Shown here: positions 46,998 through 62,677 of the stretch, piece after piece
Position numbering within the stretch: position 1 is the first letter of the stretch
How the letters are laid out: every line of letters begins with the position of its first letter
IMG/VR virus record: IMGVR_UViG_3300029705_000029
Direction: 5' to 3' (one strand)
Length of the DNA: 64,000 nucleotides
Source: a virus
Taxonomy: Duplodnaviria > Heunggongvirae > Uroviricota > Caudoviricetes
Translations under genes and position numbers: made by a program
The notes under the pieces: generated by a model
What the model was told of the DNA's origin: nothing
Databases searched by the model: none
Seen by the model: the letters and a program-made list of their open reading frames with translations, nothing else

Positions 46998-47018
46998 ATT
47001 AATTTTGAATTGTCAAGA
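46998..47018 (-). promoter_or_regulatory. Conserved motif copy, class 1 (TTGACA-N17-TATAAT; duplicated TTGACAAT)
   Basis: Upstream of 46723..46989. Confidence 0.55.
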
Positions 47019-47044
47019 TTGTCAATTTTGAATATTTCAACTAT

Positions 47045-47560: not shown

Positions 47561-47574
47561 ATATTATACCTCCC

Positions 47575-47748
47575 TTATTCCTCTGTATCAAACAGCATTT
47601 CAATTGTATTATTTTCTTCATCAATATTAAATTCCTGAAAATATGTTTCAAACCATTCCTGTTTATTTCCATCTACAAAATAGATTTCTGCATTTGGATA
47701 TATTTCTTGCAATTTTAACAAATTCTTAACGAGTTCTTTAATTTTCAT
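47575..47748 (-). CDS. Small hypothetical protein (57 aa, hand-called)
   Basis: AAAGGAGATGGAAGT-ATG. Confidence 0.35.
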   Translation of the reverse strand: MKIKELVKNLLKLQEIYPNAEIYFVDGNKQEWFETYFQEFNIDEENNTIEMLFDTEE

Positions 47749-47763
47749 ACTTCCATCTCCTTT

Positions 47764-48093
47764 TTAATTATCATACTTTGAACAATGCCCACTTGCGCAC
47801 ACCAGATCTTCAATAAAAGGTTCATATGCCTTAATAAACCTAATTAGTCTACCAACATCAGATCGCCATGTCTTGCGTTCATCTTCGTATTCGCTATGCC
47901 TCATTTCTTCATTGCAATGCCCAACCTCATAATAAGTACTAAGCACATAATCGCACTCAGCAACCATATCACGCAAATTCCATTCGCTTGTATTTTCACT
48001 AAGCGTTTCTCCAATTGTGTTATGTTCATAGCAAAGTGAATACATGATATTGTTGTATCTTTTAAGCGCACTTTCCATGTTTAACTTCTTCAT
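47764..48093 (-). CDS. Hypothetical protein
   Basis: ORF track. Confidence 0.45.
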   Translation of the reverse strand: MKKLNMESALKRYNNIMYSLCYEHNTIGETLSENTSEWNLRDMVAECDYVLSTYYEVGHCNEEMRHSEYEDERKTWRSDVGRLIRFIKAYEPFIEDLVCASGHCSKYDN

Positions 48094-48308
48094 TATTCAA
48101 ACCTCCATTCGTCAGGAAACATCATCCAACCATTACGCATCATATCTTCAAACTGAATGCAATAGCATTGATTCTGTTCATATGCGTTAAGATTACACCA
48201 TAAAAATCCTGTGTGGTTGTATCTATCTTCTGCTTCTTTCCATACTGTATTTACAAACTCCAAATGACTCATACACTGTCCAGTTTTAACATTTATAAAT
48301 TTTAACAT
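48093..48308 (-). CDS. Hypothetical protein
   Basis: ORF track. Confidence 0.4.
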   Translation of the reverse strand: MLKFINVKTGQCMSHLEFVNTVWKEAEDRYNHTGFLWCNLNAYEQNQCYCIQFEDMMRNGWMMFPDEWRFE

Positions 48309-48321
48309 TATTTACTCCTCC

Positions 48322-48573
48322 TTATACGTTCAATGTTCCAGTTTCAATCATGATCACATGATAATTTTTAACAACAAAACTATACGAATAACCTACCGCA
48401 CCAGGAGCCACACTCCACCCCATAGATTCTCTTACTCCAAAATAATCACATCTCTCTTCAAAATTCATGCTTTCCAATTCCCAAAATTCATCATCGTTCT
48501 CAAGTTCAAAAACATGAATCTTTTCCGCAGTTTCATCCCAGCTGTTCCACTCAGATTCAAAAACCTTTTTCAT
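48322..48573 (-). CDS. Hypothetical protein
   Basis: ORF track. Confidence 0.4.
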   Translation of the reverse strand: MKKVFESEWNSWDETAEKIHVFELENDDEFWELESMNFEERCDYFGVRESMGWSVAPGAVGYSYSFVVKNYHVIMIETGTLNV

Positions 48574-48574
48574 A

Positions 48575-49045
48575 CTATTTCTCCTTAAGCTGCATTTTCA
48601 AGTGCGCAATTTCAAGTCTCAGCTCACAATTATCTCTTGTAAGCCTATTAATCAAGCTTTCATTTCTTTCAGCCTTCTGAAGTCGTTCTTGTTTAATCTC
48701 GTCTTCACTGTACATATCCCAATTTTCTTGAGTGTAATCGTGCATCACATCAAAGATGCTATAGTCAATGATTCCCTTGCTAATGATTTTATTAGTATCA
48801 CAATCTACAATTACATACGCATTCCCCTCAAAATACATATAAATTAAAGACAAGTCATAATCATTATCAAACTTAGTTCTTTCAATGCGCTCTCCATACA
48901 ACGGATCATCAGATAAATTTCTTATGTCTGTAATCAGCATGTCATACTGGCCGCGCTTCTTTGGTTTCCATTCGCTCTTAACAATAGTTAACCAATCTTC
49001 ATCAAATCCTAATCGTTCTAATTTTTTAATTGTTCTTATATCCAT
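48575..49045 (-). CDS. Hypothetical protein
   Basis: ORF track. Confidence 0.45.
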   Translation of the reverse strand: MDIRTIKKLERLGFDEDWLTIVKSEWKPKKRGQYDMLITDIRNLSDDPLYGERIERTKFDNDYDLSLIYMYFEGNAYVIVDCDTNKIISKGIIDYSIFDVMHDYTQENWDMYSEDEIKQERLQKAERNESLINRLTRDNCELRLEIAHLKMQLKEK

Positions 49046-49062
49046 TTAACATATCTCCTTTT

Positions 49063-49416
49063 TTAACAATATTTATCACAATACTTTTGAATCGCTTTTC
49101 TGTTTTCATTTGTGTCAATCCAGCCCAAATATTTTCTGTCAAAGTTTTCAGGAAGTTCTTCAATAGGAATAATTTTAACTCCATCTTTAATTGCTTGCTC
49201 TGTAGCCTTATCATCATCAAAACATCCTACATCACTAATTGCTTCAATCTCCAACATTCCAGTTCCATCAAAGTTAAAAACCTCATAGCCCTTATTGCAA
49301 CTTTCAGGTCCCCAATCATAAACTATATCTTTAATTGCTTCCTCGTCGTTTCCATAATATCTCATCATTTGTTCGTATCTTTCTTTTGTCAAACCAAATT
49401 TACTCATAATAGCCAC
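49063..49416 (-). CDS. Hypothetical protein
   Basis: ORF track. Confidence 0.45.
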   Translation of the reverse strand: MAIMSKFGLTKERYEQMMRYYGNDEEAIKDIVYDWGPESCNKGYEVFNFDGTGMLEIEAISDVGCFDDDKATEQAIKDGVKIIPIEELPENFDRKYLGWIDTNENRKAIQKYCDKYC

Positions 49417-49428
49417 CTCAATTAATTT

Positions 49429-49448
49429 TGTACTGTTTAATGCTGATG
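49429..49448 (-). promoter_or_regulatory. Conserved motif copy
   Basis: Upstream of 49063..49416. Confidence 0.45.
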
Positions 49449-50114
49449 AAACACAACTGCTTTGAGCGCTTTAGACCAACATGCGCCACAAGCCGAGCAA
49501 GTAGATTCTCTTCCAGGACATACGAACGCGTTCTTAGGAAAGTCAGGATTCAAACGCTTGTCGTTAAAATCTACATACGCAACACCCAGTCCATGAGGAT
49601 TAGGAACTTCCCACAGCTTGTCCCAAGCGGAAAACATGATATTAAGATTGTCAGGCAGTTTTCCGTTCTTGTCAATGTAGTCATTTACAAGTTCGTACTG
49701 CTTAGTAAACGCCATGTATTTAGTGCTAGGAGTTTTCTTACACAGATCCACAAGTCTTACCAGAAAAGCCATATCAGGGAAATCACCGCTATCGAAAATT
49801 CTCACCTTAGGAAGTCCAGAAAACTTTACCTTGTAATAAACCTGTTCAAAGAAATTGTCAGGATCGTCATAGTACAGTCTAAGGTTTCTGTAATATGCTG
49901 CCTGTACATTCGCCATTTGCTGAAATCCCTTACATGCATAGCAAGTTGACTTACAAGGTGCATCATTACGACAAGTACATACTGGAAATGCAAGATTCAA
50001 ACAAGCTGCGCCAGTCTTGCTGTTCTTATTAGCCATGTTAATTTCATTACTCTTGTTTGCGAGAAAATCAATATACTCCTGTTTAGTTGCAAAAAATTCT
50101 TTATTCTGTTTCAT
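49437..50114 (-). CDS. Hypothetical multi-Cys protein (start trimmed to the Met at 50114)
   Basis: Cys clusters CTCRNDAPCKSTCYAC and CSACGAC; GGGAGG ribosome-binding site before the internal ATG. Confidence 0.45.
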   Translation of the reverse strand: MKQNKEFFATKQEYIDFLANKSNEINMANKNSKTGAACLNLAFPVCTCRNDAPCKSTCYACKGFQQMANVQAAYYRNLRLYYDDPDNFFEQVYYKVKFSGLPKVRIFDSGDFPDMAFLVRLVDLCKKTPSTKYMAFTKQYELVNDYIDKNGKLPDNLNIMFSAWDKLWEVPNPHGLGVAYVDFNDKRLNPDFPKNAFVCPGRESTCSACGACWSKALKAVVFHQH

Positions 50115-50118
50115 GTTA

Positions 50119-50400
50119 TTATACCTCCCATTTTTCCATTTCTCTTTTAATTTCTCCATCAAACGGTTCATCTTCCAAGCTAACTCCATATGCCATGTAA
50201 ATAGCTTCAAGAATCATATCAGCAAACCCAATAAGTCCGTTCCAGCACAGATATTCTGCAAGAAATTCCTTACCAGACATGGATAAAATCTTTTCGTCTG
50301 GGGTAGTGTCATCTTCATCATAACCGAGGCGCTGACGCATATCCTTCATGACGAATTCGGGAATTCCAGGATGCTTGTCAATATAATAGTTAATATCCAT
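50119..50400 (-). CDS. Hypothetical protein
   Basis: ORF track. Confidence 0.4.
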   Translation of the reverse strand: MDINYYIDKHPGIPEFVMKDMRQRLGYDEDDTTPDEKILSMSGKEFLAEYLCWNGLIGFADMILEAIYMAYGVSLEDEPFDGEIKREMEKWEV

Positions 50401-50684
50401 TATTCTTCCTCCTTATATACTCCAATAATATGTTTGTGAGTATAATCCTCATCATCGGAATCTGCCCACACAAGACAATCTAGAACATCGTCATACGTTG
50501 CAAATTCCATTGTTCCATGTTTGACTTCATAGTGCGGCCTCACCAAACATACATCCTGAATAATTCTACCGTCCTTGTCCCGAATACAGATAATCATTTC
50601 TGGCGGAATTTCAGGTTGATTTCTGTCATCAATTTCTGCGACAATCTGATAGCTCCCAAACGGAATAATAAGTTTATTTTCCAT
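50400..50684 (-). CDS. Hypothetical protein
   Basis: ORF track. Confidence 0.4.
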   Translation of the reverse strand: MENKLIIPFGSYQIVAEIDDRNQPEIPPEMIICIRDKDGRIIQDVCLVRPHYEVKHGTMEFATYDDVLDCLVWADSDDEDYTHKHIIGVYKEEE

Positions 50685-51055
50685 TACTCTTCCTCCATTT
50701 CAACAAATACATAATCATCAATACCATTGATATCAGGGCAATGTCCTTTAAAATATTCCTTTACATATTGTGGGACAATATATTCATCATCACCGTCACT
50801 TCCGTTTTTATAACAATTGAGCGGAATCGCAAAAGCAGATTCTCCTCCAGCATAATCAATCAAAATAAACCTAGAAGTGTATTCTGGGATTTCAATTACT
50901 CTTGCAAAATACCATGCCTCTACGCTATGAGTATCTGGAATTTCGTCAGGCCAATCAACCCCTGGGTCGCATCCAAATTCAACCGTGTCTCCGTTTTTAA
51001 GAGTCAAAAGATGCTGGGCAAAATCATCGCACGTCATAGGCTGGATGTATTTCAT
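50684..51055 (-). CDS. Hypothetical protein
   Basis: ORF track. Confidence 0.45.
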   Translation of the reverse strand: MKYIQPMTCDDFAQHLLTLKNGDTVEFGCDPGVDWPDEIPDTHSVEAWYFARVIEIPEYTSRFILIDYAGGESAFAIPLNCYKNGSDGDDEYIVPQYVKEYFKGHCPDINGIDDYVFVEMEEE

Positions 51056-51558
51056 TCTTCTTCCTCCTCACAATCAAGCAGCTCTCCCCAACCAAAATAT
51101 TCAATTTCTTCGTCTGTAAGGTCAATATTTCTGAATTTGGCGAGCGTTTCTTCTTCATCAAGTCGATACGATCCATAACAATCTGCAATATAGCACAGAC
51201 AATCTCTAATGATTTGCATTGCTCGCTGGTAGTCAATTCCATCTCCACCAAGATAGATTTCTCTTGAAACATAAATCAGCAAATCATACGTTTCAACATG
51301 CGCCAATTCATTTGCGCATTGAAAAATTGCCTTTTCAAAGCTTCTTGTCATGAACAGAATTTTACCTACCGCTTCAGCTGCATCATGGCGATCATCTATT
51401 GCATTGAGCTGATCCTCGTACCATGCTTCGTCTCTAAATGCGTTCTGTCCGCATTCAACAACATACTGAATTGCTGTGCGGAAAATCACATCTCCTTTGC
51501 ATATGTACTTGGCGCGAATTTTATCTAACTTCTGTTTAGATTCTGTGTAATTGTTCAT
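51052..51558 (-). CDS. Hypothetical protein
   Basis: ORF track. Confidence 0.45.
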   Translation of the reverse strand: MNNYTESKQKLDKIRAKYICKGDVIFRTAIQYVVECGQNAFRDEAWYEDQLNAIDDRHDAAEAVGKILFMTRSFEKAIFQCANELAHVETYDLLIYVSREIYLGGDGIDYQRAMQIIRDCLCYIADCYGSYRLDEEETLAKFRNIDLTDEEIEYFGWGELLDCEEEEE

Positions 51559-51570
51559 AATTAAACCTCC

Positions 51571-51729
51571 TTAATGTGCGATCATTTTCCACAAATCAGA
51601 AATAATATCGTGAATTGCGTTCGTAATTGCTTCTTTGTCATCAAATTGTTCGTCTGTAATGTAACCGAAATCTCTTAGACTGATTTGTTCTTCGTCGTCA
51701 ATTGTAATAATCACTCTTGTGTCTGACAT
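51571..51729 (-). CDS. Small acidic protein (52 aa, hand-called)
   Basis: GAGGAGG before the ATG at 51729. Confidence 0.35.
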   Translation of the reverse strand: MSDTRVIITIDDEEQISLRDFGYITDEQFDDKEAITNAIHDIISDLWKMIAH

Positions 51730-51914
51730 GACCCATCCTCCTCACTTACATTCATAGGCTGAACATCAATTATAAACTCCTCTGTGTCACATGGACTGAT
51801 CGCACCAAGAAACACTAAATTTCTTGCGGCACTTTGTGCTTCTTTGGCGCTACCTGCAACAACTTTTGTGATATACTTAGCTACTACTTCTACTGTTACT
51901 TCTCTTAGTGCCAT
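51711..51914 (-). CDS. Hypothetical protein
   Basis: ORF track. Confidence 0.4.
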   Translation of the reverse strand: MALREVTVEVVAKYITKVVAGSAKEAQSAARNLVFLGAISPCDTEEFIIDVQPMNVSEEDGSCQTQE

Positions 51915-51926
51915 AATTAAACCCCC

Positions 51927-52421
51927 TTAGCCACCCCATCTCAAATTAGTCCACTTTCCATCATAGCAACCATATCGTCCGCCCACAATCATTTTATACA
52001 CTGCACACAATCCTTCGTTCCACTTGTCACGGCTACCCTTGAACACGGTCATAGGATAAATCTGTTCTTTATAACTATCACCGCTACCAACATAATCAAG
52101 AAACCAGATGTCTTCAATTTGCTTTGCCTTATATACCATTGCTGGTTCAAGCGCCAAAAAAATCTTTTGACCATTGATATCAATTACCTTTTGAAGTCCA
52201 AAGTCCAATTCAAACTTTGCGTTTCCAACATCTTCATCGTCGCAATCATAATCATTGTACTCTGCTTCTCCGTTTATAGTGGCGACGATCTCTGTTGCAA
52301 AAGTCCTCATTAAACTTGTATTGTTACATAGAATGATGATGTTTTCTGTGATTGGACACAAAAGATTATTGTCGTCTTTCGTATCAAATCTTTCGTGATT
52401 AAATTTGATGCCGTTTACCAT
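51927..52421 (-). CDS. Hypothetical protein
   Basis: ORF track. Confidence 0.45.
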   Translation of the reverse strand: MVNGIKFNHERFDTKDDNNLLCPITENIIILCNNTSLMRTFATEIVATINGEAEYNDYDCDDEDVGNAKFELDFGLQKVIDINGQKIFLALEPAMVYKAKQIEDIWFLDYVGSGDSYKEQIYPMTVFKGSRDKWNEGLCAVYKMIVGGRYGCYDGKWTNLRWGG

Positions 52422-52446
52422 GTTGTCACCTCTTCAAATTATCCTT

Positions 52447-52773
52447 TCACAAATTCTTGCAAGCATCAATGATTGCCTGTGCATTGTTAATCTGCGGCTG
52501 AAGATTTGCCTTTGCAGCTTCCTCAGTGAGCCACATCTCTCCACTAAGATATGTCTTCAGGTAAAATGCTTTTTCATTGGCAATACACTTTATCCTGCTG
52601 AGTTCTCTTACTTTTTCTCTAAGGGTATTATTAACGTCTGCCAACATTTCGCTAAGCTGTAATGCTGAAATATCGTCATAGCATACATAAAGATATCGCT
52701 TTAGAATATCTTCAATCGAATTCAGGCTATCGTTTCCATTCAGCATGCCCAGCAGTCTTTCTCTGTCTGTCAT
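52447..52773 (-). CDS. Hypothetical protein
   Basis: ORF track. Confidence 0.45.
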   Translation of the reverse strand: MTDRERLLGMLNGNDSLNSIEDILKRYLYVCYDDISALQLSEMLADVNNTLREKVRELSRIKCIANEKAFYLKTYLSGEMWLTEEAAKANLQPQINNAQAIIDACKNL

Positions 52774-52793
52774 ACTTTCACCTCATCAAATCG

Positions 52794-52967
52794 TCATTTT
52801 ATTTCCTTTTCTACATCAATTACAACAGTTACTTTTGAACCCACCTTTATATGCTTACCAATAAATCCATTTAAGCAAACTACTGAATATCCATACTCGT
52901 CATCTTGCGTATCAATATAGACATTATTTTCTGCTTTCCAGTATGTTCCTTCAAATACATATCTCAT
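52794..52967 (-). CDS. Small hypothetical protein (57 aa, hand-called)
   Basis: GAGGTGA before the ATG at 52967. Confidence 0.3.
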   Translation of the reverse strand: MRYVFEGTYWKAENNVYIDTQDDEYGYSVVCLNGFIGKHIKVGSKVTVVIDVEKEIK

Positions 52968-53034
52968 ATTATCACCTCATAAAATTATCCTTTCAAGTCG
53001 TTATTATTTCATATACACTCATGAATTCCGTAAG

Positions 53035-53139
53035 CTCTCTTTAACAGATTCATGTTTGAGCTGCATTGAACCTGGGAATGATCTCAGAACCGGGTGATAA
53101 CCGGGTGACGAGATCAGCGCCCAGGTGTTTGTGCAGCTC
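53035..53139. repeat. Structured repeat unit A1 (conserved box CTCTTTAACAGATTCATGTTTGA plus an 82-nt hairpin closed by GAGCTGCA/TGCAGCTC)
   Basis: Box homologous to units A2 and B0-B3. The hairpin core contains CCGGGTGATAACCGGGTGA. Confidence 0.5.
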
Positions 53140-53140
53140 G

Positions 53141-53325
53141 GCTGAATTGAATTCCCTTGTGTATATTGGCGCTTATACCAAATTAAAATGCACTCTGTAT
53201 TTCCGTAGATATTTCTTTACAAGTTCCATATTCGGATCAATCTGAGAAAGTTACCAGCAAGGAAGCCGGGTAGATAAACCGGCTGTAATGCTGGTAAATT
53301 GAGCTTGAGGATTGATCGGAGTTAA
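53141..53325. repeat. Structured repeat unit A2 (box ...TTTCTTTACAAGTTCCATATTCGG plus a hairpin closed by GATCAATC/GATTGATC)
   Basis: Hairpin core AGCCGGGTAGATAAACCGGCT. The box aligns with B2 (CCTTGT..AATTAAA..TTTCT.TA...TCATAT). Confidence 0.5.
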
Positions 53326-53367
53326 ATTGAAACACCTTATGCATTCGCAGTATCTATCTGCGTTATG

Positions 53368-54300
53368 TTAATAGCCCTTTACTCCAAGCTCATGCATTCT
53401 ATTAGCATAGTTGAAATTATTGTCCTTAATTACCTTCTTCATCAGCGCAAACATTCTCCAACCTTCTCCCCTATATTCGTTAAGCTTGTATTTAAGCTCC
53501 TGCATAGACCCATAATTGGTAAGCGTTCCATTGTTATCTTTAATTACACAGTCGTGATACATTACCAGATTCTTAAGCGTATAATAAGCACCTTCTCCCT
53601 TGAAAGCATCAACCCATGCCTTGCTTTTGCGAGTTTCATAAGGAAGCTTAATCATGTCCTTCATAAAGTCCTTAAGATAACCATACAGTGAAGCGTAACT
53701 AACTGCATACTTAAGATACACAATCTTACTCATCAGCGGACGATACAGTTTCTTGTTCAAATCCTCTACAAAGATGTCAATTCCATTTACTCTCTTGTAA
53801 GGAACTCCCTTGCACTTCTTAGTAGGAAGCTTATCAACATAATCCTTGAGTTTTTCCACATAATCACATGCCACATCAATAACAACTTCCTTGGTGAAGA
53901 AGTGGCTTCTTTCATCAAAGCTTTCCTTGTCGCTGATTTCAAGGCAGCTAAGCACTCTTACTTCTTCGAGCATCATATCGAAAGTGTACTGATAGCCGTA
54001 CATTCTATGAAGGTAATCAGTGTAGCCCTCATGCATTCCATCATAGGACTTCCAATTCAACATCTGGAACATCTGAGCCATTACGAACCTTCTGTGAAGC
54101 TTGGTGTTCCTTACATATCCATTGGCGATAATCTGTTCTACAATGGGATCGGGTTCTTTGCCATTAACCACCACAGGCTGTCCATTTTCATCAATAATCA
54201 GATGAATCTTGGTTCCATTGTCAAGGTCCACAGTGAAGTACTTGCTGGTGTTGATGCCTGCCTGGTTCAATTTTTCCATTCTTTCTTTCTTGTTCAACAT
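53368..54300 (-). CDS. Hypothetical protein (first gene of the cassette flanked by the repeat array)
   Basis: 310-aa ORF. Confidence 0.5.
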   Translation of the reverse strand: MLNKKERMEKLNQAGINTSKYFTVDLDNGTKIHLIIDENGQPVVVNGKEPDPIVEQIIANGYVRNTKLHRRFVMAQMFQMLNWKSYDGMHEGYTDYLHRMYGYQYTFDMMLEEVRVLSCLEISDKESFDERSHFFTKEVVIDVACDYVEKLKDYVDKLPTKKCKGVPYKRVNGIDIFVEDLNKKLYRPLMSKIVYLKYAVSYASLYGYLKDFMKDMIKLPYETRKSKAWVDAFKGEGAYYTLKNLVMYHDCVIKDNNGTLTNYGSMQELKYKLNEYRGEGWRMFALMKKVIKDNNFNYANRMHELGVKGY

Positions 54301-54320
54301 AATATCATTCTCCTTATCTT

Positions 54321-54818
54321 TTAATTATTTTCAATCCACTTTCTTAGAATTACTAGATCTTTATCATTCTTTGACTGGTAAAACCACTTACCCATAGTCT
54401 TTTCATCCCACACAAAGCTGCCTTCAAGCGCAATGCATAGGATAAATCCTTCAAGCCGTGCTTTTGTAATCTCCCTCCTGTTCGCCAAAAATAATCTTTC
54501 ATCAGGAATCTCTTCAATTGGCAGCGCTTTGAAGTATGTTCGTCTCTTATTATCACTCCTTTCACTTGGTAGAGAATACTTATATCTGTCATATAATACA
54601 TCAATCGTTCCAAGAACAAGTTCCATCGTTGTAGGATCTCCTTTACGATTAAACAAATTCCTTGAAGTATCATATTCTCCGTTCTTAATCAGATAATCAT
54701 TGCCGACTTTCATTGTTCGCTTCTCAAAGTCAATATGGAACGTCTCTCCGTTTTCAACTCTTAAAAGCAGCTCTTCATAAATTGTCATTGTCTTACCTCC
54801 TTTTTGATAGATGCTCAA
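54321..54818 (-). CDS. Hypothetical protein (second gene of the cassette flanked by the repeat array)
   Basis: 165-aa ORF; GGAGGTAAGACA ribosome-binding site. Confidence 0.5.
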   Translation of the reverse strand: MSIYQKGGKTMTIYEELLLRVENGETFHIDFEKRTMKVGNDYLIKNGEYDTSRNLFNRKGDPTTMELVLGTIDVLYDRYKYSLPSERSDNKRRTYFKALPIEEIPDERLFLANRREITKARLEGFILCIALEGSFVWDEKTMGKWFYQSKNDKDLVILRKWIENN

Positions 54819-54821
54819 CAG

Positions 54822-54937
54822 TTTTGGTATATATCTTTAGAAGTCTCATATATCCTGAAGCGAGGCTCGTATTGGAGGCAGCCCCTGAAAGATAATTCGG
54901 CTGGCAGCCTCCTAATGCGAGACGTTATAGCTTCAGG
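54822..54937. repeat. Structured repeat unit B0 (partial box TTTAGAAGTCTCATATATCC plus a hairpin closed by CCTGAAGC/GCTTCAGG)
   Basis: Hairpin core contains CTGAAAGATAATTCGGCTGGCAGCC. Confidence 0.45.
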
Positions 54938-55098
54938 AAATTGAATCAACTGCCTTGCTATCTACTGCTATACTGCATAGATTACTCATAATACTGGTGT
55001 GTTCCTTTACCTGTTTCATGTTTGACTGCGCATGCCAGATTTAAGGCCATGATGGCAGGATGATAACCCTGCGATCTGGCCTGTGATCTGGGTTAATG
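54938..55098. repeat. Structured repeat unit B1 (box ...ATTACTCATAATACTGGTGTGTTCCTTTACCTGTTTCATGTTTGA plus a hairpin closed by GACTGC/GCAGTC)
   Basis: Hairpin core GGATGATAACCCTGCGATCTGG. Confidence 0.5.
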
Positions 55099-55268
55099 AG
55101 CAGTCGTCTGAATTCTATTACCTTGTAATCCATCGTCACACTACGAATTAAATTACTCAACAACATTGGTGCATTTCTCTAGTTGTTTCATATAAGAGGC
55201 AAATGCCTGCGTGAGAGACGGGATAATTCTGAGGTCTCAGTGTGTTATCCCGTTGGGCACGCAGGTCT
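55099..55268. repeat. Structured repeat unit B2 (box ...ATTACTCAACAACATTGGTGCATTTCTCTAGTTGTTTCATATAAGAGG plus a hairpin closed by CCTGCGTG/CACGCAGG)
   Basis: Hairpin core GGGATAATTCTGAGGTCTCAG. Confidence 0.5.
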
Positions 55269-55470
55269 ACTTGCCTTCTATTGAATCTAGTTGTCTTGTA
55301 ATTCACTGTTGCACTACATCATTACTCATAGCCATTGTGCGTTTCTTTAACTGTCTCATATTGGGGAATTATTTCAGCGACCTGGCATGGGAGCTGGAGC
55401 AATTTGAAACTTGCGTGCGCCTTCAAAGTGATAGCGACTAGGCGCAGCCAGTTTCAATGCGTAATAATTC
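55269..55470. repeat. Structured repeat unit B3 (box ...ATTACTCATAGCCATTGTGCGTTTCTTTAACTGTCTCATATTGGGG plus a ~104-nt hairpin closed by GGAATTATT/AATAATTCC)
   Basis: Hairpin core contains GTGATAGCGACTAGGCGCAGCC. Confidence 0.5.
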
Positions 55471-55526
55471 CCCAGTTGAATCTCGGCTACATTGTAATTT
55501 GCTTTTGTCGCACTCCAAAATGTCAA

Positions 55527-56786
55527 TCACATGCTTCTCACCAAAGTGTCATAAACTGCTCTGTTTGTGAGGATTGCATTCTGCATGCAGCGGATTGACA
55601 GATAACCGTCAATTTCCTTGTCGGTTTTATTTCTGTTCGCCGCTACATTTTTGCCCGTCCCTCTTAAGATGGTGTAATCTTCTTTATCACTTACACTACC
55701 AAGACCTCCAATCTTTTTCTTATTTGTTGCACAGGCTCTAATGCAATCCATTACGAACTGATTCAAAATGTCAATATCTTTTTGTACATTAATGATGGGA
55801 AGCACTGAAGTTGCCCACGAATACTTGCCATCTCCTTTATACAAATAAGATTGAACTTGATTGAGCGCTCGCTTCATGGAAATATTGCGCTGCTTGATTG
55901 TCCGAGATTCAATCTCTTTTTGAAAACTCTTTACGCGAGACTTGGCAAGTGTAATTTGATTTCCTTTGATATAGAAACCAAGGAACTTAAACCACCTGTC
56001 TTTCGTAAGAATCTCAACTTTCTTTGGATTCAATTCGAGTTCCATTTCATCAAGCATTCTCTTAATGGCTGCGTATGCTTGCTCCCACTCATTTCCTAGT
56101 GCCAACAAATCATCTGAATATCTAACATAGTAAACATTCATATCACTTATTGCCTTGTCAATGGGATACAACACTGCATCAGCCAAGAAGCTTGCCACAG
56201 CGCAACCTTGTTTCAAAGACTGATAATGTTCAATCAGTTCTCCATTGAAGTCAAAGCACAAATCTGCATGATAGTATTTCCTTACAACATCAATGATCTT
56301 TGACTTACCAACTTTCGATTCCATTCTGTCAAAGATGTCATCAATGTATCTGATAGGAACCCTATCAAAATACTTGGTCAGGTCTGCTTTCAGTCCAACC
56401 TCGCGAGTCTTTGTATTAATCACCTGCCTTGATACTTCCTGTACAATCTTGCCGCAACCAATGCCGCTTTGGTATGATTTGCAACTCTTATGAACGAACT
56501 CAGGAAACATCTCAAAGAACAAATTGTTTGCAATGGATAAGAAGATTCGGTCTACATTTTCATTAACGTAAACAATTCTCATATCTCCATTGTCTTTAGG
56601 AATCTGTGCTTGGTGCGGCGGAGCGATTTCGTAATTATCAGTGATAATTGCATTGTACAGCGCAAGTCTAACTTCTGGAGATGTAAGTTTTCTTAATTCT
56701 CCCTTGTCGATGTGCTTGTCGACACCAACTTCAAGTGCCTGCTCCCAGCGTTCAGTTTCAAAAAACTTCTTCAACAAAATGTCCAA
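55527..56786 (-). CDS. Reverse transcriptase (group II intron/DGR-like RT domain; no maturase or endonuclease domain evident)
   Basis: IPKDNGDMRIVYV (RT motifs 1-2), LKQGCAVASFLADAVL (motif 4), YVRYSDDLLALG (motif C, YxDD) and WFKFLGFYI (motif 7). Confidence 0.8.
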   Translation of the reverse strand: MDILLKKFFETERWEQALEVGVDKHIDKGELRKLTSPEVRLALYNAIITDNYEIAPPHQAQIPKDNGDMRIVYVNENVDRIFLSIANNLFFEMFPEFVHKSCKSYQSGIGCGKIVQEVSRQVINTKTREVGLKADLTKYFDRVPIRYIDDIFDRMESKVGKSKIIDVVRKYYHADLCFDFNGELIEHYQSLKQGCAVASFLADAVLYPIDKAISDMNVYYVRYSDDLLALGNEWEQAYAAIKRMLDEMELELNPKKVEILTKDRWFKFLGFYIKGNQITLAKSRVKSFQKEIESRTIKQRNISMKRALNQVQSYLYKGDGKYSWATSVLPIINVQKDIDILNQFVMDCIRACATNKKKIGGLGSVSDKEDYTILRGTGKNVAANRNKTDKEIDGYLSIRCMQNAILTNRAVYDTLVRSM

Positions 56787-56808
56787 ATTTTCACCTCCCG
56801 TATTAATT

Positions 56809-56828
56809 TTGTGTTGTTACTTTAATAC
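56809..56828 (-). promoter_or_regulatory. Conserved motif copy directly upstream of the RT gene
   Basis: Motif followed by GGGAGGTGA...ATG. Confidence 0.45.
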
Positions 56829-57382
56829 CATTCGTGATAGAACAGTGCTTCTTCGTCAGTCGGGTCTTCTTCGGAAACATGCTCATCAAATTCCGTGTTC
56901 ATTTCCGCAATCCGTTCTGCGTCAAGGATGTAATAACCACAATTGTCTACATCTTCGAGGTTGTCATAGAACCACTGCTGCAGTTCATAATGCTTGCGCC
57001 AGTACGCTTCCTCTTCTTCATACCAGATGTAAGTAGGAACAGATCTGGTAATTGTATATTTCTCTTCAATTTCCTCTCTAGAAATGAACTGGCCTACATA
57101 TTCGTCATTGTCATTTCTTCCAGAGATACGTATTCCTTCATAAGAATACATTCCAATGCGTGAATTTTTCGGCAGCTTGTAATCTTCAATCATCTTTTCT
57201 TTGTTGTAATATTCTGTAAGTACATTTCTTACAACAGTATATGGAATAAGCTGTTCAAAATTCTCTTCTACTTCTTCAACAGCAACCATTGCATAACCCA
57301 TGTTACTAATTTCTTCTACAGTGTACACCTTATCTTCAAGATCAGGTTTTCTTACACGTCTAACCCACATATCGAGTCCCAT
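56822..57382 (-). CDS. Hypothetical acidic protein
   Basis: ORF track. Confidence 0.45.
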   Translation of the reverse strand: MGLDMWVRRVRKPDLEDKVYTVEEISNMGYAMVAVEEVEENFEQLIPYTVVRNVLTEYYNKEKMIEDYKLPKNSRIGMYSYEGIRISGRNDNDEYVGQFISREEIEEKYTITRSVPTYIWYEEEEAYWRKHYELQQWFYDNLEDVDNCGYYILDAERIAEMNTEFDEHVSEEDPTDEEALFYHEWY

Positions 57383-57399
57383 AATTAATCTCCTTTCTT

Positions 57400-58344
57400 T
57401 TACACAGCAATCTTTTTATTTACCATGTTGTTAAACTGGTCAAAGATTGCATGTCCATCCATGATTTTGCTCCAGCGGTTTTCTTGATACGTTGCGGTGT
57501 TGCGTCGAGGTGCTGCGTGGGTAATAACATCACTCATTGCGTTAACTGCCTTCCATGCGCTGTCTTCAAACTTTGCAATATCTGGCATGTTGTATGCAGT
57601 CCAGTAGTTATTCTTAAACTGCTGTACATTGTTCTTTTTCTTCTGGCTTGCATCTTCCTTTACAGGGAACATTTCATCAAGAATCTGCTCAATCTGTTCA
57701 CGATAAAGCTTTGCGTTTGCAAGTCGGTCTGCCTCTTCATCAAGATTTACCATATAATCGTTAGCCAACTGCAAACACAATTTCGCTTCTTCAAGCTTAG
57801 ACTGCATATCGCCAACGTGCTTAGTGCTCCACTGACGCTTTGCACCATTAAGTGCCATACTTAAAGTGTTCTGACAAACCACTCGAATAGGAGTCATGGC
57901 AATTCTGATTGCGCCTGTGCCATCATGAGAATTTGTAAACACCATAAAAGGATCTACATCATCATCAAGCACCTTCTTTGTAGGCATCTTTGCGAGCAGC
58001 CAAATTCTCTTGCCTCCTGCGAGAGAGCCTGCGGTTTCATAGGTTACAACTCCGTCTTCCGTTTCACCAACAATTTCATCAGTAAACTCAAACGCTTCAA
58101 CGTTCTGTACAATCTTATAGCGGTCGCTTACAATACCAAGAATCGTGCCATCAGTGTCACGTCTGTTTGCCTTATATCCAGGAATCTCAATGCCAGAATC
58201 AGTGAACACAGGAGTCTGTTCTACGCGCCAATCAAGTCCAGCAAAATGCAATGCGTCTTCGCTCGTCGGTGCCTTTTCAACATTCACACCCAGTCCATGC
58301 CACGGTACCTGTCTTACATAAAACATAGATTCAACATTATGCAT
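57400..58344 (-). CDS. Hypothetical protein (DUF932-like phage/plasmid protein?)
   Basis: 314-aa ORF; the N-terminus FYVRQVPWHGLG is reminiscent of the DUF932 family. Confidence 0.5.
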   Translation of the reverse strand: MHNVESMFYVRQVPWHGLGVNVEKAPTSEDALHFAGLDWRVEQTPVFTDSGIEIPGYKANRRDTDGTILGIVSDRYKIVQNVEAFEFTDEIVGETEDGVVTYETAGSLAGGKRIWLLAKMPTKKVLDDDVDPFMVFTNSHDGTGAIRIAMTPIRVVCQNTLSMALNGAKRQWSTKHVGDMQSKLEEAKLCLQLANDYMVNLDEEADRLANAKLYREQIEQILDEMFPVKEDASQKKKNNVQQFKNNYWTAYNMPDIAKFEDSAWKAVNAMSDVITHAAPRRNTATYQENRWSKIMDGHAIFDQFNNMVNKKIAV

Positions 58345-58927
58345 TTTCCTTTTCTCCTTTTTCTTTATAGTAATTACTTACAGTTTCTTTCCACGATTTA
58401 CCAGACAAAATGCCATTTACCAACCCTCTGCTTAGACCGAGCATCTTGGCAATTTTCCTACATCCAAAGCCTGTATCATCTCTTATCTTCAAGATTGTAC
58501 ATACTATATCGCTTGTGATTATTGCATTATAGTGCTGCTCTTCTCTTGGTGCATATGTTGCTACATCCGCTGGATGTCTTAGCCCATTATCAAGCGCATG
58601 CTGATTGTTTTCAGATGGCGTCACATATTCAAGATTTTCAATTTTATTGTTATGCTTATTACCATCTTTATGATTAACAACATATCCTTCTGGACACTTG
58701 CCAAGAAATGCTTCTGCAACCGCTCTATGCACACGAATATTTATCACTTGATATTTCTGTGGCCTTGCTTGTAATGTCATATATCCATTTTTATTTTCGA
58801 ATTGCTTTAATGTACGCTTAGTGATTGCATTTCTGAATCTTCCGAAGTTGCTTGCTTCGTACATATTGTTCAGTGACGGAATTGGTTTCCATATTTCATT
58901 GCATAGATTTTCATCATTAGCTGCCAT
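58337..58927 (-). CDS. HNH homing endonuclease with NUMOD4-like N-terminus
   Basis: EIWKPIP...YEASNFGRFRN (NUMOD4-like) and NHKDGNKHNNKIENLEYVTPSEN (HNH). Confidence 0.7.
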   Translation of the reverse strand: MAANDENLCNEIWKPIPSLNNMYEASNFGRFRNAITKRTLKQFENKNGYMTLQARPQKYQVINIRVHRAVAEAFLGKCPEGYVVNHKDGNKHNNKIENLEYVTPSENNQHALDNGLRHPADVATYAPREEQHYNAIITSDIVCTILKIRDDTGFGCRKIAKMLGLSRGLVNGILSGKSWKETVSNYYKEKGEKENA

Positions 58928-58940
58928 TGTTTTATACCTC

Positions 58941-58960
58941 CATTAATCTTGTACTGTCCA
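58941..58960 (-). promoter_or_regulatory. Conserved motif copy upstream of the HNH endonuclease gene
   Basis: Variant CATTAATCTTGTACTGTCC. Confidence 0.45.
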
Positions 58961-59266
58961 CTCATCTACGCAAATCTGATGACTTTCATAGTTCTCATCT
59001 GCACCATATGAGATGCAATAATAACCATGTTCGTAATCTTCTTCAATCCACAGCGCACCACTATCCCAGTCATCATCTGGATACAACTCTTTATTTGAAT
59101 ACTTCTTCATTTCATCAGCATACGCTTCTTTTATCTCTTCAAAACCCTCCTTCGCGCACTGAAGTGCTTTGTTTCTGTCGTAAAAACAACCATGTTTTCG
59201 TTGTTCAAACGATATGTCATAGTCTATTTTGTCTGTGCTTGTTACCGTATATACTTTATTCATCAT
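58943..59266 (-). CDS. Hypothetical protein
   Basis: ORF track. Confidence 0.4.
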   Translation of the reverse strand: MMNKVYTVTSTDKIDYDISFEQRKHGCFYDRNKALQCAKEGFEEIKEAYADEMKKYSNKELYPDDDWDSGALWIEEDYEHGYYCISYGADENYESHQICVDEWTVQD

Positions 59267-59481
59267 TAATCATCCTCCAACACATCATAATAACTAAGTT
59301 CATTTTCTTTCGCTTCTCTTAGAGCGCTAATATCATATCCGTCATAATCGTCAACGTCAATACAAAACACACCTTCGTTGTAAGCAGCTTCTACTTTCTT
59401 TTCTGCATCACTTGCGTTTTCTGCGGCCACTACAACTGTTCTTGCCAGTGTTTCTTCAATGCGCACAACATAATGCTTCAT
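59266..59481 (-). CDS. Hypothetical protein
   Basis: ORF track. Confidence 0.4.
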   Translation of the reverse strand: MKHYVVRIEETLARTVVVAAENASDAEKKVEAAYNEGVFCIDVDDYDGYDISALREAKENELSYYDVLEDD

Positions 59482-59493
59482 AGTTACAACTCC

Positions 59494-60090
59494 TTACTCA
59501 ATCAAGTCGTAAATTTCATTTCCGTATCTGCAAACAAAGTTTACCTTATTCATTTCCTCAATGACATAATCAATATCTTCAATTGCAATCTCTCCAAGGT
59601 CATATCCAATATCGGTTATGTTGTCAAGCGTTTTCGGTTCAAATTCATCGCCATATTCTGCGATTTCTTCGTTGTAATGTTCAATGCAATCGTAATAATA
59701 GAATACGCTGTTATGAATCACCTCGTCATCAAGGTCAATTTCAATATCGCCCTCACTCCAATACTGAAGTTCTTCCATTCCCTTTTCACTTAGTGCAATG
59801 AGACCGCGGTTTCTGCTATAGTCTTCCTTTTTGAAAGTTTCATTCGGATAAAGTTTCTGAATGTAATCAAACTCATAAGCGTCACCTCGAATGCCGCCAC
59901 CATTATCTTCGCAGAATCGAATCAGTCTGAGCAAGAGTGCGCTTTCGCTTTCATCTTCGCTGTTGTAAATGCAGTTTACTATGTCTCTTGCTTCCATCAG
60001 TGCACTGTGACTGTATGCGCTCCAATGAAAGTAAATCTTGCACAAGTCCTTGCCACATCTATTAACTGTTACAACCAATCTCTGTCCCAT
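59494..60090 (-). CDS. Hypothetical acidic protein
   Basis: ORF track. Confidence 0.45.
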   Translation of the reverse strand: MGQRLVVTVNRCGKDLCKIYFHWSAYSHSALMEARDIVNCIYNSEDESESALLLRLIRFCEDNGGGIRGDAYEFDYIQKLYPNETFKKEDYSRNRGLIALSEKGMEELQYWSEGDIEIDLDDEVIHNSVFYYYDCIEHYNEEIAEYGDEFEPKTLDNITDIGYDLGEIAIEDIDYVIEEMNKVNFVCRYGNEIYDLIE

Positions 60091-60092
60091 AT

Positions 60093-60275
60093 TTATTCTC
60101 CTTTCTTTGCACCATCAATAATTTCCATTATATCTTCAAATGGATCTCTAAAATGTTCGGTGGTATCAAGTCTTGCGCAGTATGTGTCAACACCATCGTA
60201 GAACTTGTCTCTTAATCGTTGTATTTTTTTATATTCTTTTTCTGTTATTGTTATCACGCACTTCGCTCCTTTCAT
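60093..60275 (-). CDS. Hypothetical protein
   Basis: ORF track. Confidence 0.35.
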   Translation of the reverse strand: MKGAKCVITITEKEYKKIQRLRDKFYDGVDTYCARLDTTEHFRDPFEDIMEIIDGAKKGE

Positions 60276-60291
60276 TAATTTTGTACTGTTT
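60273..60291 (-). promoter_or_regulatory. Conserved motif copy
   Basis: Upstream of 60093..60275. Confidence 0.45.
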
Positions 60292-60497
60292 CATTATATC
60301 ACTTTCCTTACTAATTTGTCTTTCTATTTTTTCAATCCTTTATTTTAAATGTTCGTAAGTAGCAAGTGACCCGATGTTTCCTATGCATATGAGAATAAAC
60401 CCTATTCTCATCATCATTTCGGAATCTCCTGCACACATCCACGTTAAAATGCCTACAATGCTTGTTTGTATAAATGCTATCATTCGATCACTCTCCT

Positions 60498-60692
60498 TTA
60501 ATACATCATGAATCTTCCTTCTTCGTCCTCGGCATTGGCTACATTCCAGTTGATGTTTTCAAGCCGACCAAAGTTAATCTCACATACCATGTCGTTTGCC
60601 TTATCTGCCGCTTCATCAAAACTATTAGCTTCAACTTCAATGTACACTCTGCCATCTACGGCAACGCCTACTGTGTACTTCATTTCATCCAC
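60498..60692 (-). CDS. Hypothetical protein
   Basis: ORF track. Confidence 0.35.
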   Translation of the reverse strand: MDEMKYTVGVAVDGRVYIEVEANSFDEAADKANDMVCEINFGRLENINWNVANAEDEEGRFMMY

Positions 60693-61015
60693 TCTCCAAA
60701 TCCGTTAATGTACATATCACCATTCTTTACTCGAATCGAACGAAAAGCAAGCGCAATTCTTTCTCCAAGACTTACACTGTCGAAGTAATTGTCCACCTCC
60801 ATTAGACATCTTATAAATGCGCTTGGCTTGTCACAGCTGTCAAGATAATCAAACATTGCGGTTTTCATAATCTTTGACATTTGGGATTGAGTGTATTCTT
60901 CAATAGGAACATCACATTCTTTTGACATGTATTCTTTAGCGGCTTCAATTACATCTCCATACGCTACCTTTTTACATGCCATGATTATGTTGTAGGTTCT
61001 TTCGGTCATTTGCAT
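60680..61015 (-). CDS. Hypothetical protein
   Basis: ORF track. Confidence 0.45.
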   Translation of the reverse strand: MQMTERTYNIIMACKKVAYGDVIEAAKEYMSKECDVPIEEYTQSQMSKIMKTAMFDYLDSCDKPSAFIRCLMEVDNYFDSVSLGERIALAFRSIRVKNGDMYINGFGEWMK

Positions 61016-61275
61016 CTCCTTAAAATTTCGTCTCTCAAAAGATTCACAGCCCTGTTAATTGTATCCTCATATCCTTTTCGGCATACACCACCATACCACC
61101 ATCTATTAGACATGAGCCTTCCAATATCACTTTCATTATCAAAGCGAATGTCAGTTTCCTTTCGTTTATGAATTCGGTGGCATTCCTCGCAAATGTAACA
61201 ATGGTCGAATGTAACAAGTCGGACAATAAGGTTGGGTAGCTGTTTAAGTTTCCATTTAATGTGATGCAGTTTCAC
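61006..61275 (-). CDS. Cys/His small protein
   Basis: CYICEECHRIH. Confidence 0.4.
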   Translation of the reverse strand: MKLHHIKWKLKQLPNLIVRLVTFDHCYICEECHRIHKRKETDIRFDNESDIGRLMSNRWWYGGVCRKGYEDTINRAVNLLRDEILRRCK

Positions 61276-61581
61276 TTATATCACCCTCTCAACAATGCCA
61301 AGGTTGTAAATGTGAATATCATTTGGATTGATTTCATTGCTCTCGCCAATAACTGATTCAAATGTAGAACGATGGAATTTGTGAATCTTATCAAAGTCTC
61401 CTTTAATTTGATCCACAATATCTCTTGCGTTAGCAAGTCCAACAATAATACTTTGATCATCAATATAAGGCATTTTAGGTTGAATACCCCATACGTGACC
61501 TCTATCTATATAAAGACAGATTAGTTCGTTTGGTGCTGTTCCGAGTACGTAGAGGTTGCTTCGCGGTTTTGTTTTGTACAT
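61276..61581 (-). CDS. Hypothetical protein
   Basis: ORF track; AACGGAGG ribosome-binding site. Confidence 0.45.
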   Translation of the reverse strand: MYKTKPRSNLYVLGTAPNELICLYIDRGHVWGIQPKMPYIDDQSIIVGLANARDIVDQIKGDFDKIHKFHRSTFESVIGESNEINPNDIHIYNLGIVERVI

Positions 61582-61595
61582 TTAAGTTACCTCCG

Positions 61596-61751
61596 TTAAT
61601 CAAATCCATATTTAATAAACGTACCACATTCAGCAATTACTACGCATACGAGTAGCGCCCAAAATGCCGCTCCATCAATTCCGTTCTTGCGTGCGATTAT
61701 ACCAAAAAGAATGTATCCGAGTGAACTGATGATTTGTCCAATTACTTTCAT
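61596..61751 (-). CDS. Small membrane protein (51 aa, hand-called)
   Basis: GGAGGTAAAGTAA-ATG; two predicted transmembrane helices; TAAATG junction with the upstream gene. Confidence 0.35.
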   Translation of the reverse strand: MKVIGQIISSLGYILFGIIARKNGIDGAAFWALLVCVVIAECGTFIKYGFD

Positions 61752-62021
61752 TTACTTTACCTCCGTACAGTCATTTTCCCAAACAACACCATTATTTTCA
61801 ACTATAAGCCTGCAATTCAATGGGATTACCATGTCACTCGGGCGAAAAATTCTTGTAAGTCCATGTGAGATAGTAACTGCGTTACACATAATTGTTCCAA
61901 GTGAGTTTTCTACTGGACCAATTACCATAAACATTGCTCCACCATGTTCAAATACAGTTCCGCTACTAAGATTTCTGAATTCTACACTGGGAATCTTGGA
62001 TCTGTTATCAGCAACTACCAT
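61752..62021 (-). CDS. Hypothetical protein
   Basis: ORF track. Confidence 0.4.
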   Translation of the reverse strand: MVVADNRSKIPSVEFRNLSSGTVFEHGGAMFMVIGPVENSLGTIMCNAVTISHGLTRIFRPSDMVIPLNCRLIVENNGVVWENDCTEVK

Positions 62022-62022
62022 G

Positions 62023-62280
62023 TTATTTTACCTCAGTCCTCTCTACGGCTTCATTCCACTTTTCTCTTGCTTCACGAATAGTCTTACCACGTTCGCTTCT
62101 GAGACCACACGTGCATTTGTAAATATAACCAGATTCTTTTGCGACCGAATCGTATGTTACGTAGTTGTCAATGCGCTTGCGACCACAAACACAAGGAAGT
62201 AGCTTCACTGGTTTAGGTGGAATCTTGATGATGTTGTAGCCCAGCTTTTTCGCTTCGAGTTTGAGTTCTTCAACTGTCAT
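62023..62280 (-). CDS. Lar-family restriction-alleviation-like protein
   Basis: CVCGRK...YKCTCGLRSERGKTIREAREKWNEAV matches the Lar signature. Confidence 0.5.
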   Translation of the reverse strand: MTVEELKLEAKKLGYNIIKIPPKPVKLLPCVCGRKRIDNYVTYDSVAKESGYIYKCTCGLRSERGKTIREAREKWNEAVERTEVK

Positions 62281-62295
62281 GGTGCACTTCCTTTC

Positions 62296-62665: not shown

Positions 62666-62677
62666 AACTACTCTCCT

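Follow-up and report, generated by a model that had tools for sequence, protein, structure and literature searches.

Reverse transcriptases (RTs) of the UG27 group were linked by Mestre et al. (NAR 2022, PMC9226505) to two accessory protein clusters, 346 and 337, in gut phages, and a putative structured non-coding RNA (ncRNA) was noted in the same study in the UG27 intergenic region. A preprint by Li et al. (bioRxiv, 24 Sep 2026, 10.64898/2026.09.22.753630) described UG27 loci as variable arrays of ~150-nt units, with unit lengths clustering at 149 and 167 nt and with ~135-nt units that are without the pseudoknot. According to that work, UUYA and AUCNNNNNNNUANAG are located in an asymmetric internal loop that breaks the main hairpin of each unit, a basal hairpin and a pseudoknot complete the architecture, and at some loci additional units are found in intergenic regions nearby. 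Five systems were cloned by Li et al., and RT-dependent single-stranded DNAs (ssDNAs) of 50-100 nt mapped to the central hairpins, with the cDNA starting at AUC and ending after UUYA; deletion of either accessory gene led to loss of the products. No obvious complementarity between the cDNAs and phage or host genomes was noted, and their biological role is given in the preprint as unknown. Here we describe a UG27 locus in a 64,000-nt stretch, hereafter the window, of the Caudoviricetes record IMGVR_UViG_3300029705_000029. The element is a standard UG27 member and as such already known, from the 2022 paper and, for the array and cDNA detail, from September 2026. A first-pass annotation of the same DNA, made from the letters alone, had proposed an RT-dependent element using several structured ncRNAs, which is what UG27 loci are in the published layout, and had considered the arrangement to match nothing known, which both publications contradict.

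All parts of the locus, like every gene between positions 50 and 60 kb, are encoded on the minus strand, in the order RT, four ncRNA units, small accessory gene, large accessory gene and two ncRNA units. The three proteins are as follows.

55527..56786, minus strand: UG27-family reverse transcriptase, 419 aa, YSDD intact (PADLOC RT_UG27, Pfam RVT_1)
54321..54788, minus strand: small accessory protein (sORF in the preprint; cluster 346 / RTas346), 155 aa (PADLOC)
53368..54300, minus strand: large accessory protein (bORF in the preprint; cluster 337 / RTas337), 310 aa (PADLOC)

The RT, whose open reading frame with YVRYSDD and FKFLGFY had been correctly delimited in the first-pass annotation, belongs by profile comparison to the UG27 group. 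It matches the PADLOC profile RT_UG27 with an E-value of 2.7e-204 over practically the full length of both (residues 2-419 on profile positions 3-420 of 420), and Pfam RVT_1 with 8e-21. In a profile comparison of the kind that the annotation had proposed, all other RT families match far more weakly, with UG26 (2.9e-37), UG17/DRT10 (2.9e-26) and Drt9 (4e-23) forming a second tier. The two genes downstream, which had been listed as unknown, both encode known UG27 accessory proteins. The small one matches RTas346 with an E-value of 1.3e-54 over profile positions 1-147 of 147 (165/155-aa reading frame), and the large one matches RTas337 with 8.4e-110 over positions 20-314 of 316; neither has a family in Pfam, NCBIfam or PHROGs. 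The cassette of two genes had been placed at 53368..54818, and both genes are indeed there, but the start codon of the small gene is ATG 54788, which has an AGGAGG ribosome-binding site in front of it; TTG 54818 is part of unit 4 instead. An exact copy of the 155-aa product exists in public data (P0241), and exact copies of the accessory proteins occur on contigs of up to 171.6 kb in which the spacer between RT and sORF is likewise 738 nt.

Both intergenic spaces of the locus are filled by ncRNA units of ~170 nt, four at 55522-54806 and two at 53362-53011. We built a covariance model (CM), R1, from the window units and their relatives; the scores given below for the window units are those of its own seeds and are not independent.

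55321..55522, minus strand: ncRNA unit 1 (u1), CM R1 56.6 bits, E 4e-13; pseudoknot GUGCG/CGCAC, 5-bp Watson-Crick
55152..55320, minus strand: ncRNA unit 2 (u2), CM R1 95.6 bits; pseudoknot GUGCA/UGCAC
54981..55151, minus strand: ncRNA unit 3 (u3), CM R1 103.3 bits; pseudoknot GUGUG/CACAC; UUAUCA in the apical loop
54806..54980, minus strand: ncRNA unit 4 (u4), CM R1 79.4 bits; pseudoknot GUAUA/UAUAC
53189..53362, minus strand: ncRNA unit 5 (u5), CM R1 108.3 bits; pseudoknot UAGAUA/UAUCUA
53011..53188, minus strand: ncRNA unit 6 (u6), CM R1 120.4 bits; pseudoknot UAAGC/GCUUA

The first-pass annotation had already seen that the region 3' of the RT is non-coding and repetitive and that two further homologous units follow the two genes. 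Its borders for the two arrays (54822-55470 and 53035-53325) are slightly too narrow, since the basal hairpins widen them to the limits given above, and the letters that it quoted are the reverse complement of the RNA. Read 5' to 3', each unit starts with a 3-5-bp hairpin (P0), followed by the 5' arm of P1a (AUUAC or a variant), AAG and the 5' arm of P1b; then come (G)AUUCAA, a long central hairpin with an apical stem-loop, and AUAUG-N7-UANAG; the 3' part consists of ~3 nt, a 5-6-nt complement of the P0 loop, the 3' arm of P1b, UGA and the 3' arm of P1a. The outer stem is bipartite, with an AAG/UGA loop between P1a and P1b, and is separated from the central hairpin by an asymmetric internal loop that has UUYA on its 5' side and AU(G)-N7-UANAG on its 3' side. 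UUCA or UUUA, as well as UANAG, are in place in all six units, and in each of them the segment following UANAG forms 5-6 Watson-Crick base pairs with the P0 loop. The 3' box AUG-N7-UANAG, with copies on the minus strand at 55359, 55191, 55019, 54849, 53229 and 53053, is not rare by itself (30 matches in the window vs. 23 expected); the six copies stand out because of their regular spacing of 168-176 nt and their common context. Within the window P1a already covaries, being AUUAC/GUAAU in u1-u3, UGCAU/GUGCA in u5 and AUAUACAC/GUGUAUAU in u6, and the outer stem of u4 is altered to UAGAU(A)GC/GCAUCUA. The closing stems, which had been described as perfect over 6-9 bp, have 6-12 bp without a mismatch in five units, and the stem of u2 is imperfect. 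Unit 1 has an unusually long, branched central hairpin, and u2 a diverged apex with UUAUC in the stem instead of the loop. The GATAA that had been taken for part of an inner helix is the complement of the apical-loop motif (UAUC in the RNA), u2 being the sole exception.

Covariation supports every helix of the unit scaffold. Aligned alone with MAFFT, the six window units were misaligned in their 5' parts, and a usable alignment needed 42 units from the window and its IMG/VR relatives (A2). Covariation of the hairpin units, a check that the annotation had suggested, was found in these 42 units both with RNAalifold, which independently predicts P1a, P1b and the apical stem with compensatory changes in 18 of 19 pairs, and by counting pairs. 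All 27 pairs of the full structure (P0, P1a, P1b, P3 and the pseudoknot) vary on both sides, and 85.0% of the cells are paired, compared to 58.0 +/- 1.0% after shuffling (reached in 0 of 500 shuffles), a control that overstates significance because the units share ancestry. Less affected by ancestry are a slid control, in which shifting the partner by 1-3 columns gives only 29-51% pairing, and a comparison of the pseudoknot with other units: at least five contiguous Watson-Crick pairs are formed with the unit's own loop in 90% of 52 units and with the loop of another unit in 8.4%. In A2 the pseudoknot helix is 89.9% paired, with all five pairs covarying.

Searches with R1 over the 64-kb window return the six units and nothing else at E <= 1. 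It is this absence of other matches, together with strong matches to non-seed units elsewhere, that is informative despite the seeding. We collected 25 IMG/VR loci (RT identity 52-92%, many on contigs of 150-173 kb) and 44 genome loci. R1 finds at least 88 units in the 25 viral loci, with non-seed units down to E 1e-26, and 52 units in 32 genome loci, and in both sets the units always adjoin the RT. Since cmsearch drops overlapping matches, u2 and u4 were searched separately and the viral unit counts are lower bounds. Copy number varies between relatives, from 4+2 in the window and in L001 to 6+2 in L005, 8+2 in L027, 3+2 in L028 and about 2+3 in L008 and L013. The same layout, with 5+1 units and weak R1 matches, is present in Phocaeicola coprophilus DSM 18228 (L057), a species named among the experimentally tested UG27 systems of Li et al. 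(10.64898/2026.09.22.753630). When the window is compared with L001 (84% nucleotide identity in the RT gene), orthologs of u2, u4, u5 and u6 are recognisable, and u1 and u3 are without one. The identity of u2 to its ortholog is 0.82 over the central hairpin, and in u4 and u6 the scaffold is better conserved than the central hairpin. The pseudoknot address of u5, AUAUCUAC, is common to the matching unit in most related phages, and that of u6, AGCUUAC, is likewise conserved in most of the clade. The array does not differ between near-identical contigs, and no very recent gain or loss of a unit was seen among them. A search of GenBank phages returned a single, distant match, Bacteroides phage BS-TP1. 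In this cultured phage (L026; PQ571274.1, record positions 79351-80613) the UG27 RT is annotated as 'tail protein'. Homologs of sORF and bORF lie beside it, together with three or more ncRNA units (locus positions 3497-4141) that the CM detects with weak scores.

The genes and units of the window locus are closely packed. The RT stop codon is followed after 5 nt by u1 and the bORF stop codon after 6 nt by u5, the end of u4 directly precedes the ribosome-binding site of sORF, and only 35 nt separate the RT from the gene upstream. A scan for sigma-70 promoters and intrinsic terminators gave sites at chance level. Given the tight spacing, the array is most simply part of an operon transcript and co-transcribed with the genes, as these data suggest.

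Applying the published UG27 rule, here from the AUG start motif to the UUYA stop motif, gives the following predicted cDNAs in plus-strand sense.

55357..55480, plus strand: predicted cDNA of u1, 124 nt, DNA fold -31.2 kcal/mol; ends at the UUCA stop motif
55189..55285, plus strand: predicted cDNA of u2, 97 nt, DNA hairpin of -22.5 kcal/mol
55017..55112, plus strand: predicted cDNA of u3, 96 nt, -23.0 kcal/mol; GATA in the terminal loop at the midpoint
54847..54945, plus strand: predicted cDNA of u4, 99 nt, -24.8 kcal/mol; GATA in the terminal loop
53227..53326, plus strand: predicted cDNA of u5, 100 nt, -21.5 kcal/mol; GATA in the terminal loop
53051..53146, plus strand: predicted cDNA of u6, 96 nt, -25.2 kcal/mol; GATA in the terminal loop

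All six are predicted to form long imperfect DNA hairpins of -21 to -31 kcal/mol. By homology with the cloned systems, we infer that cDNA is produced at the window locus as well. An operon transcript from the minus strand would carry the RT, four units, the small and the large accessory gene and two more units. Each unit would fold into the conserved scaffold, in which the loop of the basal hairpin kisses the 3' side of the internal loop to form the unit-specific pseudoknot, and the scaffold would present the long, sequence-variable central hairpin as a template. The RT and both accessory proteins would then copy the central hairpin only, beginning at AU(G/C) of the 3' motif and stopping after UUYA, and the locus would release six different ssDNA hairpins of roughly 96-124 nt. 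That we are dealing with a complete UG27 system in a ~170-kb phage, synthesizing cDNA by the published mechanism, is in our view highly probable.

A feature in which the window and its clade depart from the reported AUC start is the third base of the start motif. It is G in all window units, in the relatives with at least 60% RT identity other than L028 and in the distant L066, and C in L028 (77% RT identity), L022 and Bacteroidota prophages including that of P. coprophilus; at AUC-type loci the start context reads AUAUC. The letter is uniform within each array. L027 (G-type, 8+2) and L028 (C-type, 3+2) are related phage contigs binned in one metagenome-assembled genome (MAG). A second feature of the clade is a UAUC in the apical loop (GATA in the cDNA), present in 64 of 91 G-type units compared to 1 of 91 in a control segment from the 5' arm; among C-type units 20 of 71 have it. 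In A2 at least 90% conservation is reached by three of the four bases, and in the window the plus-strand GATA of the apical loops lies at 55062-55065, 54891-54894, 53273-53276 and 53096-53099. Some P. coprophilus units have CUAAC or CUGAC in its place. The words 'apical', 'UUAUC' and 'GATAA' are absent from the text of the preprint, and the motif may still be in its figure. Mimicry of an anticodon loop by the UAUC loop was considered and rejected, as loop sizes range from 3 to 13 nt and are most often 4.

The central hairpins of 169 units (window and L001-L070) were also compared as RNA and as DNA. When both strands are folded with one energy model, the cDNA sense comes out more stable than the RNA sense in 131 of 166 units, including all six window units, with a mean gain of 3.5 kcal/mol (Wilcoxon p = 1.6e-15). 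A structure that functions purely as RNA is expected to tolerate G·U and to avoid A·C. For single mismatches flanked by Watson-Crick pairs, the ratio of G/U to A/C is 58:9 in the scaffold (P1a, P1b and pseudoknot) vs. 31:34 in the central hairpins (Fisher p = 2e-6), where A·C oppositions correspond to G·T wobbles in the cDNA; C/U mismatches exceed A/G by 47:18. The central hairpin thus departs from the G·U-tolerant, A·C-averse pattern, which fits selection on the DNA copy as well and suggests, as far as such modelling goes, that this part of the unit is selected not as RNA alone. Apart from the conserved loop, the stems of the central hairpin diverge faster than the scaffold or the RT.

Several points weigh against the picture drawn so far. 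In six of six window units AUG stands where the preprint reports initiation at a conserved AUC, and the predicted products of 96-124 nt are at or above the top of the reported range of 50-100 nt. The strand-asymmetry statistics are derived from predicted folds of related units in which C modestly exceeds G in composition, and the shared ancestry of the units and the seeding of R1 have been mentioned above. With regard to the role of the products, comparison of the predicted cDNAs with the rest of the window gave, for similarity or complementarity, a best match of 11 nt (E > 1), in agreement with the lack of obvious complementarity noted in the preprint, and usable AF2 models of the two accessory proteins (pLDDT 79 and 91) gave no informative fold match; no particular target is indicated.

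That the element might be an unrecognised retron, a remnant of a group II intron or a diversity-generating retroelement (DGR) is an idea that the RT next to structured non-coding sequence invites, and the RT does match the group II maturase model TIGR04416 (106 bits) and retron RT profiles (E ~1e-11 to 1e-13; the best being 7e-12 and 3e-13). The UG27 profile is better by more than 160 orders of magnitude in E-value, however, and the maturase score is far under the cut-off of 300 bits. Rfam, searched over the whole window at the gathering threshold and over 52900-57000 at E <= 1, has nothing in the locus, be it retron msr, group II domains or another family; this covariance-model check had been proposed in the first-pass annotation. 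Both the retron and the group II intron were rejected on these grounds, the latter, as the annotation had also concluded, in addition because of the 35-nt gap upstream of the RT. Its term 'retron-like' holds loosely for an RT with structured ncRNA, but there is no msr/msd and the RT is of a different family. The annotation likewise reported no template/variable repeat pair of a DGR, and indeed none is present within 9 kb: besides the unit box and gene-start regions, there is no direct repeat of at least 40 nt in 46000-64000 that would suit such a pair. Taken together, we regard a retron, intron remnant or DGR as extremely improbable. A CRISPR array, discounted from the start, was rejected since the units are structured and ~170 nt long and their boxes are only 71-86% alike; PADLOC made no Cas call on the three locus proteins besides RT-domain cross-matches. 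We give practically no credence to the notion that the repeats are a generic intergenic family of host or phage (REP/BIME-like) or terminator hairpins unrelated to the RT. They are intergenic, rich in hairpins and arranged in tandem, as such elements would be, yet they occur nowhere else in the 64-kb window, adjoin UG27 genes in 57 other loci and share motifs and a pseudoknot that are specific to the family, and terminator-like sites are at chance level.

Two further alternatives accept the UG27 identity and differ in what the array does. The array RNAs could themselves be functional, as scaffolds, sponges or regulators, with reverse transcription incidental or absent in this phage, and the classic RNA-level selection on the scaffold helices (G·U vs. 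A·C, 58:9) would be consistent with this. We nevertheless consider it very improbable, given that the array is always linked to an RT, here with an intact YSDD, that RT-dependent cDNAs arise from exactly this part of the unit in five homologous systems, and that the central hairpin is without an RNA-type mismatch bias. The other alternative concerns where synthesis starts: in the AUG-type clade the RT could begin at the AUC within the apical UAUC and make half-length, linear ssDNAs of ~45-50 nt complementary to the 5' arm only. In favour of this, AUG replaces the published AUC start site throughout the units of the window and its close relatives, the same clade keeps the apical UAUC (64/91 vs. 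1/91 in the control), and the AUAUC start context of AUC-type loci resembles the apical motif. On the other hand, neither N7-UANAG downstream nor the internal-loop context, both of which define the mapped start, is found at the apical loop; an apical UAUC also occurs in about 30% of AUC-type units; and the 3' arm has the DNA-type mismatch pattern and strong pairing that would be needless if only the 5' arm were copied. An apical start is therefore improbable, and synthesis of the entire central hairpin from the 3' motif is the reading that we follow below.

As to what such products might do, we tentatively suggest that the DNA hairpins could bind a protein of the host or phage during infection, as ligands or decoys, and not serve as antisense guides. 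A more elaborate proposal, which we put forward as rather doubtful, is that the templates are tuned for DNA and let the phage produce a library of hairpin ssDNAs that serve as ligands (decoys or aptamers), and that the loci in addition form orthogonal RT-template sets. The library part is prompted by the combination of A·C tolerance, a better fold in cDNA sense, a conserved GATA loop and fast-diverging stems; if it were true, a common partner would recognise the one constant loop, and specificity would come from the variable stems. If the RT-template sets were orthogonal, the locus-wide switch between G and C at the start site would allow co-infecting phages to avoid cross-talk.

The likeness of the locus to the published UG27 systems extends to the RT family, the two accessory proteins, the phage context and a gene order (RT, array, sORF, bORF, extra units) that is among those published. 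Its units belong to the ~167-nt class, with basal hairpin, pseudoknot, an internal loop with UUYA and AUx-N7-UANAG and a variable central hairpin, and their copy number likewise varies between relatives. It differs in having, with its clade, G instead of C as the third base of the start motif, an enriched apical UAUC that the text of the preprint does not have, slightly longer predicted products (96-124 nt) and a home in a ~170-kb phage with a tRNA array and a DnaE polymerase of its own, the five tested systems having been taken from integrated prophages. UG27 systems as published resemble retrons in the copying, by an RT, of a defined hairpin segment within a neighbouring structured ncRNA, which yields short hairpin ssDNA in abundance. 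They differ from retrons in the RT family, in the lack of a msr/msd match and of identified a1/a2 inverted repeats or a branching G, in the number of templates (six in the window locus vs. one) and in the need for two dedicated accessory proteins in the synthesis as such, and they are phage-borne and not enriched in defence islands (PMC9226505). With DRT2 (UG2), DRT9 (UG28) and DRT10 (UG17) they share a class 2 RT and the copying of a short template within a dedicated structured ncRNA, and UG17 and Drt9 are among the best secondary profile matches of the window RT. Those systems, in contrast, use a single ncRNA to produce long DNA, be it concatemeric, homopolymeric or tandem-repeat, DRT2 priming from the RNA 3' end and DRT9 and DRT10 from a protein Tyr or Ser (PMC12632851), and they serve host defence, whereas UG27 is phage-encoded and yields discrete short hairpins from many units. 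The likeness to CRISPR arrays is by analogy only: conserved modules are interspersed with variable cargo in tandem, and close relatives differ by gain or loss of units. Unlike CRISPR repeats, the ~170-nt units of the window have a conserved part that is structural and not an exact repeat, no Cas was called among the three locus proteins, and the cargo is a self-complementary hairpin without a detectable match to other genomes.

Otherwise the window belongs to the part of a large (~170 kb) phage that serves replication and nucleotide metabolism. Its products include a DnaE-type polymerase, an SF1 helicase, an NAD-dependent ligase, a PARP-like protein, a RecJ-like DHH protein, an RNA ligase and a tyrosine recombinase, along with PHROG-family proteins, 11 tRNAs and a drum RNA. 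Homologs lie on viral contigs of 160-173 kb; the closest genome matches are contigs binned with Faecalimonas and Prevotella MAGs, which leaves the host uncertain. The 11 tRNA genes called by ARAGORN form a cluster at 32640-36947 on the minus strand, inside which the drum RNA (Rfam RF02958, 68.6 bits) is located at 35651-35760, also on the minus strand. A 136-nt tRNA-like Rfam match at 32775-32910, not called by ARAGORN, may represent a tRNA interrupted by an insertion or intron, or else a false match. The PARP-like protein (406 aa, 18877-20097, minus strand) has a PARP catalytic domain (PF00644, E 1.2e-21) and is ADP-ribosyltransferase-like. The tyrosine recombinase/phage integrase (PF00589, E 1.2e-35; 45131-46156, minus strand) would fit either a temperate phage or an enzyme for dimer resolution. 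Two pairs of 41-nt direct repeats, 78% identical (58925-58965/63044-63084 and 57376-57416/60084-60124), overlap the starts and ribosome-binding regions of minus-strand genes and may be shared translation-initiation or promoter regions.

The window adds no new kind of system; it gives a clearly bounded example, with six units, from a large phage that has replication genes of its own, and the array could be recovered by unaided reading of the raw sequence. What goes beyond the text of the preprint, and can be tested, are the locus-uniform AUG/AUC switch, the apical UAUC loop and the mismatch statistics, which in sequence comparison and modelling point to selection on the DNA strand. Phage BS-TP1, being in culture, is a possible experimental model for the role of the UG27 system. 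More generally, UG27 is a widespread phage-borne RT system in which arrayed RNA modules are converted into defined ssDNA hairpins, and its modular and apparently reprogrammable templates are of interest for the production of ssDNA in cells.

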